32,088 nt of DNA from Thermoproteota archaeon. Lineage in GTDB: Archaea > Korarchaeota > Korarchaeia > Korarchaeales > Korarchaeaceae. This document shows, piece by piece, positions 23,333-31,314 of this stretch; positions within the stretch are counted from its first letter, which is position 1; the number at the start of each line of letters is the position of its first letter. A program made the position numbers and the translations under genes. The stretch is from positions 1 to 32,088 of the forward strand of contig JAOZGP010000029.1 of NCBI GenBank assembly GCA_027491735.1. The letters run 5' to 3'. The notes below the pieces were generated by a model, which saw only the letters and a program-made list of their open reading frames with translations, made no database searches and had not been told where the DNA came from.

Positions 23333-24423
23333 ATAAAAGACCAATACTCGTGTTTTGGGAAGCTACAAAGGCCTGTGAGCTTAAATGCCTTCACTGCAGA
23401 GCTGAGGCCATAGAGGAGCCACAGCCGGGAGAGCTCAGCACCAGCGAAGCTGAGAAGTTTGTCCGATCGTTGGAGCTCTTTGGAGAACCACCACTATTGG
23501 TGATCACCGGCGGAAACCCGTTGAAGAGAAGAGATCTGTGGAACATATTGTCCAAAACAAGTGTTCCCAAAGCCCTCTCTCCGACGGTCGGAGAGCTCCT
23601 TGATCAATCCATCGATGAGATAAGGCGACGCGTGAGATCTGTCTCCATAAGCTTAGATGGAATATTGGACACTCACGACGAGATAAGGGGAGTCGAGGGA
23701 CACTTTCTGAGGACTATCAAAGCCATAGAGAAGCTGAGATCAGCAGGGGTGAGAGTACAGGTAAACACAATAGTGATCAGGAGAAACGTGCTTGAGCTCC
23801 CGCTTATCCTGAGGAGGATCGTTGAGCTGGGTGTCCCGGCGTGGGAGCTCTTCTTCTTGGTTAGAGTGGGGCGTGGACTCGATCTGAAGCATGAGGACCT
23901 AACCCCTCAGGAGTACGAGGATGTCATGAACTTCCTCTACGAGGCATCGTTCTACGGCCCAATGATAAGAACTGTAGAGGGACCCTTCTTCAGGAGAGTT
24001 GCCCTGGAGAGGAGCAGGGGAATCAAGAGAGCATCGCATCTCTACAAAAGGATTAGGGATAAGTTAAGAGAGGTTCTCGGTTCACCTACTCTCTCAAGAG
24101 CGAGAGCAACAACCTTCGGGACCAGGGACGGGAAGGGAATCATATTCGTCTCAAGTGAAGGAGATGTTTATCCAAGCGGATTTCTACCTTTCTCCCTGGG
24201 AAATATCAAGAGCAGAGAGTTGATAGATATCTACCGTCGTGACGAGCTGCTAGTAAAGATAAGGAGAGGCGAGTTCAATGGAAAATGTGGCATCTGTGAG
24301 TACAAGGACATATGTGGAGGTTCTAGGTCTAGAGCATATGCAGAGGAAGGCGATCCGCTAGGAGAGGACCCAGCTTGTCTGTATAAGCCTAGAAATAGGA
24401 CCTTCTTCGCCAGGCGATGCTGA
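23329..24423 (+). CDS. ahbD: Radical SAM/SPASM enzyme, AhbD-like heme b synthase (TIGR04053-like)
   Basis: (L)NKRPILVFWEATKACELKCLHCRAEA, TGGNP, FFLVRVGRG, EGPFFRR, DGKGIIF, YPSGFLP, CGICEYKDICGGSRSRA, DPAC. Start is CTG 23329 or GTG 23350. Confidence 0.75.
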   Translation: MNKRPILVFWEATKACELKCLHCRAEAIEEPQPGELSTSEAEKFVRSLELFGEPPLLVITGGNPLKRRDLWNILSKTSVPKALSPTVGELLDQSIDEIRRRVRSVSISLDGILDTHDEIRGVEGHFLRTIKAIEKLRSAGVRVQVNTIVIRRNVLELPLILRRIVELGVPAWELFFLVRVGRGLDLKHEDLTPQEYEDVMNFLYEASFYGPMIRTVEGPFFRRVALERSRGIKRASHLYKRIRDKLREVLGSPTLSRARATTFGTRDGKGIIFVSSEGDVYPSGFLPFSLGNIKSRELIDIYRRDELLVKIRRGEFNGKCGICEYKDICGGSRSRAYAEEGDPLGEDPACLYKPRNRTFFARRC

Positions 24424-24471
24424 TCTCGATGGGTTCGCAGGGCTCAAGTTTATCTTAAGCAGGATGTAGTC

Positions 24472-25338
24472 ATGCAGGTGATGGGTGCAAAAGACTTCTT
24501 TGAGCTTCTTAAGTTGAAACAGACAGCCTTATTAGTTTTCACGGCGATAGCTTCATATTTCGCAGCACCTTCTCAGAGCTGGAGTCTGAGAACTGTCGTT
24601 CTCCTGCTCATATCTGAGGTGCTGGCGGTTGGCGGAACCACCGCCGTGAATATGTACTTCGACAGGGATATAGACGCGCTCATGGAGAGAACTAAAGAGA
24701 GACCACTTCCAGCCAGAAGGTTGAACCCACCGATCTCATTGGCATACGGACTGGCAATATACGCCATTGGTCTCGCTCTCAGCCTGACAGTAAGTTTCTA
24801 TTTATTTGTAACCATCTTGCTCGGCTTCGTGTTTGATATATTTGTCTACACACTCTATTTCAAGAGGAAAACTCCCCTAAACATAATCTTCGGTGGGGTA
24901 GCTGGAGGAATGCCAGCTATGGGGGGATGGCTTACAAGAACTGGATTCTTCGACCTGGGAGCCCTGCTTTCCTTCTTGCTGGTCTTCCTGTGGATACCCA
25001 TGCACATATGGTTCATCTCCATCTACTACTTGGAGGACTACAGAAAATCCGGAGTTCCAATGCTCCCAGTTGTTGTAGGACCGATCAGAACAGCGAAGTT
25101 TATAATGATAAGCTTGGTCCTGCTGGAGACCGTGGTCATGGTCATGACGGCTCTGCAGTACGCCACACTGTTCACTCTCGTGGTATCAACGCTCCTCACA
25201 GCCTTCTCGATAAGAGTCATGTGGAAGTTCCTGAGGGACCCCAGGCGCGAGGTGGCAAGGCAGCTCTTCAAGCTCGCCAGTCCGTACCTAGCTGTGGTCT
25301 TCATCTGCATAATAATAGGCAGACTTCTCGGGATCTAG
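24472..25338 (+). CDS. ctaB: Protoheme IX farnesyltransferase (heme o synthase)
   Basis: NMYFDRDIDALMERTKERPLP, YTLYFKRKTPLNIIFGGVAG, WIPMH, DYRKSGVPMLPVV. Confidence 0.93.
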   Translation: MQVMGAKDFFELLKLKQTALLVFTAIASYFAAPSQSWSLRTVVLLLISEVLAVGGTTAVNMYFDRDIDALMERTKERPLPARRLNPPISLAYGLAIYAIGLALSLTVSFYLFVTILLGFVFDIFVYTLYFKRKTPLNIIFGGVAGGMPAMGGWLTRTGFFDLGALLSFLLVFLWIPMHIWFISIYYLEDYRKSGVPMLPVVVGPIRTAKFIMISLVLLETVVMVMTALQYATLFTLVVSTLLTAFSIRVMWKFLRDPRREVARQLFKLASPYLAVVFICIIIGRLLGI

Positions 25339-25864: not shown

Positions 25865-27016
25865 ATGGAGAACGTCTTGGTCTCCCTTGCTGGCGAGATA
25901 TCGCTTAAATCAGCGCCTGTTCGTAGGGCCTTTGAGAGAAAACTGAGGAGGAACATAAGGAAAGCAGTGAAGGTGAGGGCCTTCAGAAACTTGGGAGCAA
26001 AGTTCTCGCTCGAGGTAGACGACGTCGACAGCTCCATGAGTGCTCTCGGGAGGATATTCGGGGTTGCTTGGGCCTCGAGGATAACAGCACTCGATAGCTC
26101 CGACCTAGACGAAGTCCTCTCCTTTGTAAGGAGAAATTACAACGACTGGATACCTGAAGGAAGCACCTTCGCTGTTAGAGTTCGGAGAGTAGGAGAACAC
26201 CCATACAGAAGTATAGATGTGGCTCGCAAAGTCGGAGAGCTCGTGGATAGAGAAGTGGACCTTAAAAATCCTGATGTAGAGCTCTTTATAGAGATAAGAG
26301 GAAACAGAACTTACTTCTACACAGATAGAGACAGAGTAAAGGGACCTGGTGGTCTTCCCCTCGGGACTGCAGGCGCCGTTGTCTGCCTGATATCCGGTGG
26401 ACTTGACTCACCTGTTGCATCCTGGATGATGATGAAGAGAGGGTGTTCCGTGGTCGCCCTCTACGCGATGTCCCCTCTAGCTCCTGAAGGCCTTAGGAGG
26501 TTCTTCGATGCATTCAGAGTCTTGAGGAAGTGGCACATAGGCGAGAGGATAAGAGCTTTCGTTTATAGGACGGACTACGACATCACACCGTTCGGGAAGG
26601 AAGCACTCAGACATGCTTACGTGCTCGAGAGGAGGATAATGGTCAGAGTAGCTAGCGAGCTTGCTAGTAGAGTCGGGGCCAAGGGTATAGTGACAGGGGA
26701 CAGCCTGGGGCAGGTCTCCTCCCAGACGCTGGACAACCTCTACGTGATAGACAGAGCAGCCAGTTTTCCTGTGTTCAGGCCTCTAATCTCCTTTGATAAA
26801 AATGAGATAGTGGAAATTGCTAAAAAAATAGGAACATATGATATATCCACGAGGAAGTGCTATCAGGAGTGCGGCAGCCTCACCGCCTGTGTAAGGAGGC
26901 CTGTCACCAAGGCGAGAATGGAGAAAGTATTAAAAATAGAAAATAAGATAGGGTCGAACAGAATGCTTGAGAGCTGCCTCTCCACCTTGGAGGAGGTAAC
27001 GGCTCTGGTAAGGTAG
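25865..27016 (+). CDS. thiI: tRNA 4-thiouridine(8) synthase, no rhodanese domain
   Basis: GEISLKS, THUMP (TFAVRVRR, VDLKNPD), GPGGLPLG, PP-loop ISGGLDSPVA, TGDSLGQVSSQT, RPLI-DK-EI; TTTTTATAA at 25828-25836. Confidence 0.93.
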   Translation: MENVLVSLAGEISLKSAPVRRAFERKLRRNIRKAVKVRAFRNLGAKFSLEVDDVDSSMSALGRIFGVAWASRITALDSSDLDEVLSFVRRNYNDWIPEGSTFAVRVRRVGEHPYRSIDVARKVGELVDREVDLKNPDVELFIEIRGNRTYFYTDRDRVKGPGGLPLGTAGAVVCLISGGLDSPVASWMMMKRGCSVVALYAMSPLAPEGLRRFFDAFRVLRKWHIGERIRAFVYRTDYDITPFGKEALRHAYVLERRIMVRVASELASRVGAKGIVTGDSLGQVSSQTLDNLYVIDRAASFPVFRPLISFDKNEIVEIAKKIGTYDISTRKCYQECGSLTACVRRPVTKARMEKVLKIENKIGSNRMLESCLSTLEEVTALVR

Positions 27017-27022
27017 TTTCTC

Positions 27023-29356
27023 ATGCTAGGGTTCATAGAGGAGGTGAGGTTGGAGAACTTCAAGTCCTTCAGGAGGGCGAGGATCGTCTTCCCAAGCAGA
27101 CTCGTGGCAATAACTGGTCCCAACGGGGGCGGCAAATCCAATGTAATGGATGCCATAGCTTTCGTCTTGGGGGAAAGAGCTAGATCTCTGAGGGCCAAGA
27201 GGCTCAGTGGACTTGTCAGAAAGGGTGCTGAGAGGGCGAAGGTCGTGTTGGTCATCAAACATGGAAAAAGGAGAATCCATGTAAGTAGAGAGATAAGGAG
27301 GAACGGAGATAGTGTGTACAGAGTTGATGGATCGATTAAGAGAGCCTCTGAGGTCGAATTATTGCTCTCAAGGGTGGGACTGCGTTTGGGATCCTACTGC
27401 GTAGTGTCCCAAGGAGAGATAACGAGAATAGCTGAGATGTCTCCTCGTGAGAGGTTGCAGCTTTTGGAGGAGATAAGCGGGATTCTTGAATATGAGAACA
27501 AGAAGCAGGAAGCCTTGAGAGAGCTGGAGGAGATAGACAAAGTGATATCAGAGCATAAGGCGGTTCTCGAGTACAGAGAGAGAGCCCTCAGGGAAGCTGA
27601 GGAAGAGGTGAAGCGTCTCAGGAAGAGGAAGGAGCTGGAGAGGAAGAGAGACTCCCTGAGGAAACAGCTCCTACTTTTGAGGAGGGATCGGCTGATGAAG
27701 GACCTCAAGGCATTGGAGGAGGTTAAACTGGAGGTTGAGGATTTAACTCCGCTTGAAAAAGAATTAAATCAGGCAGAAATGGAGTTAGAGTTTTTAGAAA
27801 ATTCTGACGATCTGTCAGAGCTTAGAGAATATCAAAAGAGGAGAAGTAAGCTGGAATCCCTTAAATCGAAACTCAAAGTGATCGAGGCAAGAATCTCGGA
27901 GAAGAGAAAATCACTGGAGGCCCTGACAAGTTATCACCAGAGGAAACTTCCTTCGGAGGTAATCAACGACTCTGGCTTTCTGGGAGTTGTCGGTGATCTG
28001 GTCAAACCAGTCGAGGGATATGAGGTCGCTTACCGTGCTGCTGGAGGAGGAAGACTACAGGACGTCGTTGTCAGGACATATGAGGATGCACTCAGAATAA
28101 TCTCCAAGCTTAAAGGCAGAAAGATCTCGATGAGAATAATTCCTCTGGATACGATCAGATCTAAGAAGTGCAAAGAATCTTCTCCCAATGTTAGTATGGG
28201 CTTTCTCACTTCCTTCCTCCTCTACGACGAGAGCTGCTCGAAACTGATTGATCTGGTGTTCGGTGACTATGTGCTGGTCAGGGACATAGGCGAGGTTCCT
28301 AGGGATCTCCTCGGAAGGTATAAGTTTGTCTCCCTCGACGGTGAGATCCTCCTCAAGGATGGGACCATACGCATAGAAAGGAGGGACTGGGACGTTCTGG
28401 CATCCTCACTGATGAGAGAGAGGGGGAAGATAAACAGTCTGATCAGAGAGAGGGAGGAGATTTTCTCCAAGATCGAGGAGTTGGAATCTGCTATGAGAAG
28501 GCTCCCAGACCCAAAGGAGATCGCGACGAAACTGAGGGAAGCTAGGAATAGGGTCCATATGCTCAGGGAAAGGTATAGAAAGGCCCTGGAGGAGAGACGG
28601 AGGAAAATGGCGGGATTATCGAGGTTGTCGGAGAGAAAGGGGGAGATAAAGGCAGAGCTGAAGAGTCTAGATGAGGAACTTAGGAAGCTTGAGGGCGTGG
28701 AACCTGCCTCATCCAGTGATCCAAAAAGAGATCTTGAGGTCCTAGAGGCTAGACTGAGGATCCTTGGGGAAGTGGATCCGAATGCTGAGATCAAGTACTC
28801 GGAGATAAAAAGGAAGTACGAGGAACTCAGAAGCCTCCTCAACAAGGCACTAGAGAAGAGGGAAGGAGCCTTGAAGGCCATAAGCATGTGGGAAGAGAAG
28901 AAGAACAGGGAGTTCTCTGAGAAGTACAGGTCATTGAGAGAAGCCTTCAACAGGAAGCTCAAAGATCTTTTAGGATGGGAGGGAGACCTAAAGCTGGTTG
29001 AGATGGGTGAAAAGCTCTGTTTGATCGTGGAGGTCTCAGCACCAGGAAAGAAGCCCGTAGATATAGATGCATTCTCAGGAGGGGAGAAAAGCTTGATAGC
29101 CCTAGCATTTATCCTAGCAGCTCAGGAGGTCCGTCCGTCAGCAATATACCTCTTCGATGAAGCGGACTCAATGCTCGATGGAGTTAACTGCTCTAAGTAC
29201 GCCAACATGGTCAAGAAGCTTGCCGAGAAAGCCCAGGTGGTGATAGTCACTCTGAAGAAGGAAACCCTGAGCGAGGCTGATTACATCATAGGCATTACGA
29301 TGTCCGACGGATCGAGCAAACCAATCGCTGTGAGGTTGGAGGATGTCCGCTCCTGA
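27023..29356 (+). CDS. smc: Chromosome segregation SMC ATPase with short coiled-coil arms
   Basis: ENFKSF, Walker A GPNGGGKSN, Q-loop SQGEI, hinge (GFLGVVGDLV...GGRLQDVVV...IPLD...VFGD...VSLDG), LGEVD, FSGGEKS, Walker B YLFDEAD. Confidence 0.9.
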   Translation: MLGFIEEVRLENFKSFRRARIVFPSRLVAITGPNGGGKSNVMDAIAFVLGERARSLRAKRLSGLVRKGAERAKVVLVIKHGKRRIHVSREIRRNGDSVYRVDGSIKRASEVELLLSRVGLRLGSYCVVSQGEITRIAEMSPRERLQLLEEISGILEYENKKQEALRELEEIDKVISEHKAVLEYRERALREAEEEVKRLRKRKELERKRDSLRKQLLLLRRDRLMKDLKALEEVKLEVEDLTPLEKELNQAEMELEFLENSDDLSELREYQKRRSKLESLKSKLKVIEARISEKRKSLEALTSYHQRKLPSEVINDSGFLGVVGDLVKPVEGYEVAYRAAGGGRLQDVVVRTYEDALRIISKLKGRKISMRIIPLDTIRSKKCKESSPNVSMGFLTSFLLYDESCSKLIDLVFGDYVLVRDIGEVPRDLLGRYKFVSLDGEILLKDGTIRIERRDWDVLASSLMRERGKINSLIREREEIFSKIEELESAMRRLPDPKEIATKLREARNRVHMLRERYRKALEERRRKMAGLSRLSERKGEIKAELKSLDEELRKLEGVEPASSSDPKRDLEVLEARLRILGEVDPNAEIKYSEIKRKYEELRSLLNKALEKREGALKAISMWEEKKNREFSEKYRSLREAFNRKLKDLLGWEGDLKLVEMGEKLCLIVEVSAPGKKPVDIDAFSGGEKSLIALAFILAAQEVRPSAIYLFDEADSMLDGVNCSKYANMVKKLAEKAQVVIVTLKKETLSEADYIIGITMSDGSSKPIAVRLEDVRS

Positions 29357-29888
29357 GCACCTCGAGGAGAAGTTTCAGATCCTGCTTGTTGTGTTGGAGA
29401 GGGAGAAGGACCTGGCGATAGCTGGACTCCTCATATATGAGTTGGTGCGAACCCTGAAGTTCTACGTGAAGCTTCTCTTCAACGAAAGAGGGAAGGCCAG
29501 TAAGGAGAGGAAGAGGATCAGGGTTGGAAAGGTAAGAGCTCTCTTAATCCCCAAGAGAGTATTTCGAAGACCTGTAACTGTTACAGAGATAAAAAAGGCT
29601 CTGTTGTGGGCCACACGTAGGATAGAGAAGATGTCAAGCAGCAAGCTCCAGGTGATGGTCGAGAACTTCTCCGCGCTCATGGATGCAGTCTATCGGCGCA
29701 TTCTCTCAAAGTTCAGTGGAGAAAAACTTGCGTTTCGAGAACTGGTGAGCAGCAAGGATGAGGCCATAGATGTCTTTCTATCTATACTCTTTTTGGAGAA
29801 GGATGGGAAGGTCGAAGTGATGCAGGAGAGTCCGTTTGGTGAGATATACATACTCCCAAAGGTGAGCGTGGTTGAGCAGATGGGATGA
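29343..29888 (+). CDS. scpA: Kleisin ScpA, short and divergent
   Basis: RRPVTVTEIKKAL and C-terminal winged helix FLSILFLE..GKVEVMQESPFGEIYI; lies between smc and scpB. Confidence 0.8.
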   Translation: MSAPEHLEEKFQILLVVLEREKDLAIAGLLIYELVRTLKFYVKLLFNERGKASKERKRIRVGKVRALLIPKRVFRRPVTVTEIKKALLWATRRIEKMSSSKLQVMVENFSALMDAVYRRILSKFSGEKLAFRELVSSKDEAIDVFLSILFLEKDGKVEVMQESPFGEIYILPKVSVVEQMG

Positions 29889-30348
29889 GAAGAAGAGGCT
29901 CCTGGAGGCAGCTCTCTTTGCGGCGTCTCGTCCGCTCTCCACGGATGATCTGTCCAAATTCCTTGGACTCTCGGGGGTCTCGATAGAGAGAATGGTTGAA
30001 GAGATAAATGAGGAGCTCGAGAATCACCCCTTTCAGGTGGTGAAGCGTGGTGATGGTTGGGAGATGCGCCTCAAGGATGACTATACCGAAGCAGCTCTGA
30101 AGTTCGCTCCAGTACCGGAACTGAGCAAGTCTGAGCTGAGAACTCTGGCTGTAATAGCTCTTAAGAGGAAGATATCAGCAACGGAGCTTTACGCAATCAG
30201 GGGAAACGTTCGGGATCAGGTGAGGAAGATGATCAGGATGGGGCTCGTAAGAGAGAGGAGGGAAGGAAGGAGGGTCTACTTCACGGTGACGGGAAGGTTC
30301 AGCAGGTACTTCGACTTAGCTCTAGAGGATGGAGAGGGCGGTCCATAG
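29872..30348 (+). CDS. scpB: SMC kite subunit ScpB
   Basis: LEAALFAASRPLS, WEMRLK, LSKSELRTLAVIA, IRG, GR..YF.VT..F..YF.L. Confidence 0.9.
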   Translation: MSRWDEKKRLLEAALFAASRPLSTDDLSKFLGLSGVSIERMVEEINEELENHPFQVVKRGDGWEMRLKDDYTEAALKFAPVPELSKSELRTLAVIALKRKISATELYAIRGNVRDQVRKMIRMGLVRERREGRRVYFTVTGRFSRYFDLALEDGEGGP

Positions 30349-31314
30349 CTCCTCTCTTACGGGCTCGTTGAGATCTACTTCCTCCCCTTTCAAGGTCTTG
30401 AAGATCCTTTTCTTACCCTTGACGAATTTTCCAATGACCCTCGCATCAATTCCCTCCTTCTTCAATCTCTCGACGAGATCCTTAGCTCTCTCCGGATCTG
30501 CTGATATGAGCAGGGATCCAGAGCTTATGAGCCTGTATGGATCTATGCCAAGCGTCCTGCATATGGCTCTGGTCTCCCTCCTGACCAGGACGTCTCTCTC
30601 CCTGACGATCACCCCCAGGTTGGAGGCCATGGCCAGCTCCTGGATCCCGCCAAGAAGCCCTCCTTCAGTTGGATCATGCATAGCATGGACACCTCCCACC
30701 TCCATGGCGATCATGGCATCTTTGACAACGCTTATCATTCTTATGAAGTTCCTGGCTCTGTTCAACAGGTCCTTACTTAGTTTGCTGGCGAGTTTTTCAT
30801 AGAACTCTTCAGCCAGGATGGCTGTTCCCTCTATTCCAGCACCCTTAGTGAGTATGAGGCTGTCTCCCTCCCTGACTCCCGATGAGGTCACGTAGGATCC
30901 CGGATCTCCCTCGCCTATGGCGGTCACCATGACTATGGGTCTGCTGAGCCCCGGCGTTATCTCTGTATGCCCTCCAACTATCTTAACACCTAGCTCGGCA
31001 GCCGCTGACCTGAGCTGCTCGGAGATCTCATCGAGAAGTTCCTTTCTCGGAAGCAACATAACGACAAGCATCCACTTTGGTCTGAGGCCTGTGGTAGCTA
31101 CATCGTTGGAGGCCACGTTCACGGCAAGCCAGCCTATCCTTCTCTCGGCTCCTGTTATCGGGTCACAGTGCACAGCTATAATCCTATTGCCCACTCTGAT
31201 GATAGCGGCGTCTTCCCCCACCCTTGGACCCACAACCACTTGTGGATCTCCAGACGTGAGCTTGTGAAGGAGGCCCTCCAGCTCCCTGTACGAAAGTTTA
31301 CCGTACACGTGCAT
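30322..31314 (-). CDS. AIR synthase/HypE/ThiL-superfamily protein
   Basis: GKL, GEDAA, DPIT, NDVA, IVGGHTE, GIEGT, MHDPTEGG, LISSG. Confidence 0.85.
   Translation of the reverse strand: MHVYGKLSYRELEGLLHKLTSGDPQVVVGPRVGEDAAIIRVGNRIIAVHCDPITGAERRIGWLAVNVASNDVATTGLRPKWMLVVMLLPRKELLDEISEQLRSAAAELGVKIVGGHTEITPGLSRPIVMVTAIGEGDPGSYVTSSGVREGDSLILTKGAGIEGTAILAEEFYEKLASKLSKDLLNRARNFIRMISVVKDAMIAMEVGGVHAMHDPTEGGLLGGIQELAMASNLGVIVRERDVLVRRETRAICRTLGIDPYRLISSGSLLISADPERAKDLVERLKKEGIDARVIGKFVKGKKRIFKTLKGEEVDLNEPVREELWTALSIL

Follow-up and report, generated by a model that had tools for sequence, protein, structure and literature searches.

A naturally short-armed Smc encoded in one overlapping unit with ScpA and ScpB in a korarchaeal genome

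What is the 777-residue Smc protein of a korarchaeal genome, whose coiled-coil arms are so much shorter than those of other Smc proteins? Its gene lies in a stretch of 32,088 nucleotides (contig JAOZGP010000029.1, positions 1 to 32,088, of assembly GCA_027491735.1), referred to here as the window, and is followed there by scpA and scpB. It is a matter of debate what arm length, the joint and a possible elbow contribute to DNA loading and to loop extrusion, and the resizing screen in Bacillus subtilis is, to our knowledge, the one systematic study in which arm length was tested. The original prediction, made from the letters of the DNA, took the locus for a miniature Smc-ScpAB complex with both arms about halved. 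We find that the locus very probably encodes the only chromosomal Smc-ScpAB complex that the organism has, and that this complex is a naturally shortened one.

The protein has the anatomy of an Smc: the two halves of an ATP-binding cassette (ABC)-type head sit at the N- and C-terminal ends, with an SMC hinge midway along the chain. In Pfam, SMC_N matches residues 4–763 with 184 bits, and SMC_hinge (PF06470) matches residues 317–422 with 74 bits (1.3e-20). The best NCBIfam model is TIGR02169, the archaeal SMC equivalog, with 443 bits in three stretches; other NCBIfam scores are at most 79.5 bits on the Rad50 models (cut-offs 700–1087), 77 bits on the ASRP model NF045487 (cut-off 300) and 39 bits on arcadin-4. 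On 5xei_A, an Smc chain of head and joint, a profile of the short Smc family reaches 526 bits; the profile also matches the hinge structures 4rsj_A, 5h69_A, 3nwc_A and 1gxl_A. An alignment of 20 short Smc proteins (A1) was the source of the invariant columns and of the boundary models described below. It shows no variation at Walker A K38, Q-loop Q130, the signature residues S685-G686-G687-E688, Walker B D712-E713 or hinge G440, and G447 is nearly invariant. The original prediction had noted all head motifs and a recognizable hinge, and both are borne out by the SMC_N and SMC_hinge matches and by the invariant catalytic residues.

How much of the arm is missing? Hidden Markov models (HMMs) of the N-terminal head half (residues 1–160), the hinge (312–455) and the C-terminal head half (612–777) were made from A1 and set the same boundaries in every protein. 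By this measure, the N and C arm strands of the window Smc are 151 and 156 residues long. The corresponding strands are 144–158 and 149–160 residues in its relatives in the host phylum, 163–170 and 163–204 in short Smc proteins of DPANN-like archaea, 239 and 239 in the 981-residue Smc of Thomasclavelia, and about 340–349 and about 335–346 in full-length archaeal and bacterial Smc. The window Smc does not reach the canonical strand of ~340 residues (about 47–49 nm). With common boundaries, the loss relative to full-length Smc is ~190 residues per strand and is symmetric, in agreement with the 190–200 residues that had been predicted. From the residue counts, the rod would be roughly 21–23 nm long, against 47–49 nm.

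The loss was mapped in an E-INS-i (MAFFT) alignment with 16 longer Smc proteins of 981–1199 residues. Against the 1187-residue Thermococcus Smc, the gaps fall at residues 238–294, 310–380, 423–443 and 469–506 of the N strand (187 residues in total) and at 685–712, 731–766, 779–868 and 878–898 of the C strand (175 residues in total), the placement of these four blocks per strand within low-complexity coiled coil being approximate. In this alignment, the middle of the arm is gone from both strands, and only that much of the placement is safe. The solved structures agree with this. The head-plus-joint chain 5xei_A covers residues 1–265 and 541–774 of the window Smc, and the hinge-plus-coiled-coil chain 4rsj_A covers residues 246–512; together they leave only ~28 residues uncovered (about 513–540). 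Neck, joint and hinge-proximal coiled coil have been retained, and an irregular stretch is left in mid-arm.

The AlphaFold2 (AF2) model of the window Smc, with a mean predicted local distance difference test score (pLDDT) of 83.2, shows long helices that are paired, a hinge and a joint-like break. The helices span residues 154–231, 242–259, 263–302, 456–492, 498–555, 567–581 and 588–650, the last running into the head, and the hinge spans 311–451; the strands and helices of the N-terminal head half are mostly above pLDDT 85. The LGEVD loop is at residues 581–587, so the predicted distance of ~130 residues from the hinge end to this motif holds. Among the 20 short Smc proteins, indels cluster after residues 232, 238 and 259, proline is found at residue 495 in 50%, and proline or glycine at residues 561, 565, 567, 582, 583 and 586 in 45–90%. 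Our heptad and helix-breaker script is crude and was used only for the conservation of the breaks at residue 495 and residues 556–587. Since the stretches of low AF2 confidence coincide with the family indels and with the half-conserved Pro-495, a central irregularity of the arm remains. The two arm strands would pair in the antiparallel sense.

The host phylum is represented by 43 genomes in our collection, and the window genome itself is 1.36 Mb in 41 contigs and 88% complete. An Smc match at E ≤ 1e-30 was found in 33 of the 43 genomes, and a hinge-family match likewise in 33. All 33 hinge-bearing Smc frames are short, complete ones having 758–833 residues, or 951–954 with an intein, and 99%-complete genomes that consist of one or two contigs are among the carriers. 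Close relatives have the same-length orthologue and no form of ~1180 residues. No second hinge-bearing Smc frame, and hence no full-length one, was found in any of the 43 phylum genomes; the window genome, at 88% completeness, gave one hinge match only.

The protein is under selection. An identical protein is on record on four contigs. Against that of a congener (G001), the window smc aligns without gaps at 85% identity and a synonymous divergence (dS) of ~0.8, and the ratio of nonsynonymous to synonymous divergence (dN/dS) is 0.108 overall, 0.052 in the N arm, 0.222 in the C arm, ~0.07 in the heads and 0.19 in the hinge. For scpA and scpB in the same comparison, dN/dS is 0.26 and 0.12. Strand length stays within ~15 residues across orthologues that are only 34–50% identical. 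The symmetric loss is fixed across the lineage and is under purifying selection, and the short form is ancestral to the host phylum. The lineage-wide fixation and the dN/dS values of 0.05–0.22 in the arms thus uphold the proposal that the loss was selected rather than a sign of decay.

What of the partners, ScpA and ScpB? ScpB matches PF04079 in Pfam with 105 bits (2.9e-30), which identifies it as a kite protein. ScpA is matched weakly, and only over its C-terminal winged helix (24.0 bits on Rad21_Rec8, cut-off 22.7); this C-terminal part aligns with canonical ScpA. In the AF2 model, ScpA has helices at residues 5–21 and 24–48, a disordered stretch at 49–79, two further helices within 80–123, and a winged helix at 129–172. 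The N-terminal ~25–30 residues, including the DPW..IDI motif, are absent from all 13 ScpA proteins of families f1 and f2 in a second alignment (A2). They are kept in its five other members, two of family f4 from the same phylum and three from archaea with full-length Smc. The scpA reading frame cannot be extended upstream. A predicted complex of two ScpB with ScpA scored 0.50 against 0.32 for a control, and we use this neither for nor against an association.

The function of the short Smc-ScpAB is assigned from family membership. Two Smc chains would dimerize through the canonical hinge, the ATPase heads would engage upon ATP, and ScpA would link the neck of one Smc to the other Smc's head. 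ScpB is probably bound to ScpA. DNA would be entrapped and translocated as in other Smc-ScpAB complexes. The short complex is most likely functional and the sole Smc-ScpAB of its hosts.

Several observations weigh against the reading as a naturally shortened chromosomal Smc-ScpAB. The window Smc does not reach the curated TIGR02169 cut-off of 729.4 bits, a shortfall to be expected from a 1165-position model because the arm is missing. ScpB scores 67 bits on TIGR00281, below the cut-off of 89.2, and ScpA scores 23.5 bits on SMC_ScpA, just under the Pfam cut-off of 24.6. Besides the approximate placement of the gaps, the predicted template modelling score (pTM) of the AF2 model is 0.49, with low confidence at residues 232–270 and 491–530, and because of this low confidence the pairing of the strands in mid-arm is not established. 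Without its conserved first N-terminal helix, ScpA could contact the Smc neck in an altered way. Furthermore, binding of ScpA to ScpB was not found for six euryarchaeal pairs in the passages of Jeon et al. (2020, PMC7055376) available to us, so it is not safe to assume that ScpB belongs to the complex. No arm of ~160 residues is yet proven to work, the shortest functional B. subtilis arms being 253–267 residues in the available passages of Bürmann et al. (2017, PMC5344682).

The distribution within the phylum also has gaps, and these too count against the reading. Smc was not found in either of the two g7 genomes (91–92% complete), in four of five g3 genomes (71–93% complete) or in one 99%-complete g4 genome, which has only a 201-residue frame with a weak head match and no hinge. 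The fifth g3 genome has a partial Smc copy at a contig end. Two further bins at 66–70% completeness also gave no Smc. The named genomes with no Smc match are G005, G009, G012 and G018 (g3), G027 and G028 (g7) and G006 (g4). The absence of Smc from some relatives implies that the complex is dispensable there, and it suggests that the phylum has lost the complex repeatedly.

Could the short arms be an artefact of assembly or gene calling? Repetitive coiled-coil DNA might have collapsed in a metagenome bin, with both arms halved as a result, and the window genome is a bin of 41 contigs, 88% complete. The same length nevertheless recurs in 33 of the 43 phylum genomes, some of which consist of one or two contigs, the identical protein stands on four contigs, and the alignment with the congener is free of gaps at a dS of ~0.8. 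Both strands are also shortened to a matching extent in 33 independent cluster representatives (among the best 150 of 5,935, see below). There is practically no chance that such an error explains the locus; by sequence conservation, it can be taken as already refuted. A real gene might still be in decay: under relaxed selection the Smc would have been shortened and would have ceased to act as a DNA motor, in a lineage that is about to give up the complex. The missing Smc in g7, in most g3 genomes and in the nearly complete g4 genome would fit this, as would the lost first helix of ScpA. Decay is at odds with dN/dS values of 0.05–0.22 in every region, arms included, with invariant catalytic and hinge glycine residues, with strands that stay matched and are held within ~15 residues in length, and with the recurrence of the same arm class in distant archaea. 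We regard it as quite improbable.

The protein could instead be a specialized SMC-like protein and not the chromosomal condensin: one related to ASRP and coalescin, one related to Rad50, or an ATPase of a defence system, for example JetC of Wadjet or mad3 of the methylation-associated defence system (MADS). In favour of this, the PADLOC mad3 model scores 185.6 bits on the two head halves of the window Smc, the window genome holds a hinge-less SMC-like protein as well, and the TIGR02169 score is below its cut-off. We read the mad3 match as common SMC-head ancestry with no defence role. Against a specialized protein stands the canonical SMC hinge; we know of no SMC hinge in the ASRP/coalescin-like, Rad50, JetC or mad3 families. 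The NCBIfam scores are far below the cut-offs of these families (77 against 300 bits for ASRP, at most 80 against 700–1000 for Rad50), and JetC reaches 37.5 bits on the P-loop only (residues 7–49), with no full-length match to Wadjet JetC/MksB. Furthermore, the gene overlaps in an operon with scpA and scpB, these genomes have no other hinge-bearing Smc, and the neighbours, thiI and scpA/scpB, are housekeeping genes (the defence search consisted of three PADLOC queries). A specialized protein is thus very improbable. Membership in the 'SMC5/6-related archaeal SMC' group of Yoshinaga et al. (2021), in which the short arms would echo Smc5/6, is unlikely, if less so than the other alternatives. 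In its favour, a Korarchaeota homologue stands next to the SMC5+6 clan with support of 87%/100%/1.0 in the passages of that paper at hand (PMC8665677), and the Smc5/6 arm mode is 272 residues in those of Bürmann et al. (2017, PMC5344682). However, as described there, the Korarchaeota protein of PMC8665677 is ambiguous, for the filter of 500–1500 residues also admits hinge-less proteins of ~570–640 residues. The short-Smc profile gives 362–411 bits on eukaryotic Smc1–4 chains against 106–114 on Smc5/6 chains. In our head-plus-hinge tree, which contains no eukaryotic sequences, the lineage stands apart from the Nitrososphaerota/Aigarchaeota clade and with DPANN-type Smc, with Shimodaira–Hasegawa-like approximate likelihood ratio test (SH-aLRT) values of 88–90.

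A naturally shortened chromosomal Smc-ScpAB is the reading that we carry forward, and it can be set beside known systems. Canonical Smc-ScpAB of B. subtilis, Pyrococcus and Thermococcus has the same head motifs, joint, hinge, ScpB kite and adjacent smc and scpA, and its kleisin has the C-terminal winged helix that is weakly matched in the window ScpA. It differs in its strands (~340 residues against ~153) and in its ScpA, which has 215–228 residues against 181 in the window, where the first helix is absent. The genes in the window all overlap, whereas many Euryarchaeota have scpB remote from scpA; in the same available passages of Jeon et al. (2020, PMC7055376), smc, scpA and scpB are all adjacent in three of three Korarchaeota species, the arrangement seen here. 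Among natural proteins, the ~980-residue Thomasclavelia Smc (P0036) is likewise hinge-bearing and symmetrically shortened, and belongs to the 238-residue arm class; it is bacterial and one period short, against two here. Closer to the window protein are the DPANN-like short Smc proteins of ~800–860 residues (G036, G040, P0012–P0014), which have a canonical hinge and arms of 163–177 residues and group in the tree with the window lineage. Their arms are ~10–20 residues longer per strand, and they are 26–31% identical to the window Smc. The G040 ScpA (239 residues) keeps the canonical N-terminus, unlike the window ScpA. The SMC-related proteins ASRP, coalescin ClsN and Rad50 resemble the window Smc in their ABC-type head and in the overall size of the coiled coil; they are not known to have an SMC hinge or to act with ScpAB.

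Short natural arms have left a trace in earlier statistics. The passages of Bürmann et al. [quoted passage not shown] In their supplement mmc2, mean arms are below 200 residues in four of 3,337 rows (193, 173, 160 and 159). The C-head ends at residue 751 in the 159-residue row, so that this protein is about the size of the window Smc. Bacillus-like Smc measures ~336 residues on our scale against 344 on theirs, an offset that turns the 153 residues of the window Smc into ~160 in their terms, which is the 163-residue minor mode. That mode was based on four of 3,337 sequences with arms below 200 residues, whereas here it extends to a whole phylum and a DPANN-like group. The same passages describe resized B. 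subtilis Smc proteins with a functional period of 91 residues, arm steps of 91–99 residues, and function only down to the arm lengths given above. The engineered Mini-Smc of B. subtilis resembles the window Smc in this shortening by steps of ~91–99 residues. The loss of ~190 residues is roughly two such periods, and the angular relation of head to hinge may therefore be preserved. 'Naturally occurring short variants' are mentioned in the part of a 2018 preprint (10.1101/464701) available to us, and a full-text search of the collection at our disposal found no paper on a short-arm Smc of Korarchaeota or DPANN. The short Smc-ScpAB is a variant of a known machine that was noticed statistically before and never described by lineage or studied. 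For the suggestion of a natural small-ring condensin, the anatomy and the reading are supported; its novelty is less than assumed, short natural Smc proteins being on record in the 2017 statistics, and the class had in part been described.

How common is the short class? A HMMER pass over 1.84 billion cluster representatives (50% identity) gave 5,935 matches at E ≤ 1e-30, of which the best 150 were measured. Among these 150, the mean arm is 148–176 residues in 33, 177–226 in none, 227–240 in four, 263–300 in seven and 300–359 in 97, and the remaining nine had no match to the hinge HMM. In the 33 short representatives, the N and C strands match within 11 residues. Because the ranking favours short proteins, these counts support the existence and the diversity of the class and do not give its frequency. 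The short class comprises at least 33 clusters, in the host phylum and in DPANN-like archaea. The nearest protein Atlas cluster (830 residues, 857 members) is mostly from Aenigmatarchaeota.

A quick IQ-TREE analysis of 49 Smc proteins over 491 head and hinge columns groups the 11 host-phylum rows as a clade (SH-aLRT 100), which is joined by four short Smc proteins of the DPANN-like kind (SH-aLRT 88); a fifth falls in an adjacent polytomy with full-length Smc of Nanoarchaeota, Woesearchaeota and Micrarchaeota. In an approximately unbiased (AU) test, a single clade of all 16 short rows was not rejected (p = 0.189). Taken with the tree, this makes a single origin possible, with transfer or ancient descent.

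We also consider a bolder form of the proposal, in which the short-arm Smc-ScpAB is an old lineage of single origin, common to the phylum and the DPANN-like archaea by descent or transfer. In it, exactly two superhelical periods would have been removed with the joint and the central discontinuity kept, and the product would be a fully active DNA motor whose kleisin was shortened along with the arms and to which ScpB really binds. Taken as a whole this is doubtful. If true, a natural case would prove the periodic arm-length rule for a length not reported as reached in B. subtilis engineering, and it would provide the smallest complete, thermostable SMC-kleisin-kite holocomplex for structural work.

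Although this is no new kind of machine, the short class being already visible in sequence statistics, the short complex could be useful. A natural holocomplex with ~22 nm arms, selected phylum-wide and probably thermostable, could test the period rule two periods down. It could also reveal whether DNA can still be entrapped in a small lumen, and it could be a much smaller particle for cryo-electron microscopy than the 50-nm complexes. The tightly coupled scpA-scpB pair is relevant to the claim that a bound kite is generally absent from archaeal Smc complexes.

The features of the locus are collected in Table 1. As had been predicted, smc, scpA and scpB overlap as one unit behind thiI. The order smc-scpA-scpB is repeated in the 13 related loci that were read, with scpB directly 3' of scpA. 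The thiI gene was identified by Pfam and NCBIfam scans; it is not a conserved neighbour, since other genes occupy that place in related loci. Among named sequences, the ThiI protein is nearest to those of Bathyarchaeota (43%) and Sulfolobus (41%), which would fit a TACK affinity and nothing narrower.

Table 1. Genes and Smc segments of the locus, in window coordinates
Feature	Position	Strand	Description
thiI	25865–27016		stop 6 nt upstream of smc
smc	27023–29356	+	777 aa; short-arm Smc; open reading frame with SMC_N and SMC_hinge matches
N-terminal half of ATPase head, aa 1–160	27023–27502	+	Walker A GPNGGGKS aa 32–39, Q130; aligns to 5xei_A head
N-terminal arm strand, aa 161–311 (151 aa)	27503–27955	+	low-confidence break aa 232–241
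hinge dimerization domain, aa 312–455	27956–28387	+	PF06470; profile matches to solved hinges
C-terminal arm strand, aa 456–611 (156 aa)	28388–28855	+	break at LPDP motif aa 493–499
joint-like interruption of C-terminal strand, aa 556–587	28688–28783	+	loop, helix 567–581, LGEVDP loop; within 5xei_A alignment
C-terminal half of ATPase head, aa 612–777	28856–29353	+	SGGEKS aa 685–690, D712 and E713, D-loop; aligns to 5xei_A
scpA	29343–29888	+	181 aa; shortened kleisin; 14 nt overlap with smc
scpB	29872–30348	+	158 aa; TTG start; 17 nt overlap with scpA; kite subunit

Two of the related Smc genes have, or appear to have, insertions. The short Smc of genome G029 (L032:1995–4850, minus strand) carries an intein (PF14890) in the Walker A loop (P-loop), for a frame of 951 residues, and six of the 33 short representatives have a large P-loop insertion at the same residue. 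In G002 (contig C106, 4606–6975, minus strand), the congeneric Smc matches in two pieces (residues 2–348 and 352–775) ~100 nt apart in one 800-residue frame, which suggests an insertion of ~30 residues just after the start of the hinge.

Other SMC-like proteins were seen in the searches. Candidate 'short Smc' proteins of candidate phyla radiation (CPR) bacteria (L046, L093, L066 and L100; 742–880 residues; Ryanbacteria, Saccharibacteria and other bins) have a strong SMC_N match and no Pfam hinge; they are a different kind of short SMC-like protein and were set aside. The hinge-less protein of the window genome has 572 residues (contig C40, ~103357–104973, minus strand; locus L003:361–2079, minus strand) and reaches 177 bits on SMC_prok_A; on ASRP, its 69 bits fall short of the cut-off of 300. 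Frames of a similar kind, with 559–679 residues, occur in many relatives, including g3 genomes with no Smc match. A 910-residue frame on contig C12, with SMC_N matches at both ends, is a putative Rad50 candidate, and the remaining SMC_N matches in the window genome are ABC-type ATPases.

Around the locus, two open reading frames of 357 and 288 residues lie upstream at 23350–25338 on the plus strand. Downstream, a 330-residue frame at 30322–31314 on the minus strand is convergent with scpB and overlaps its 3' end.

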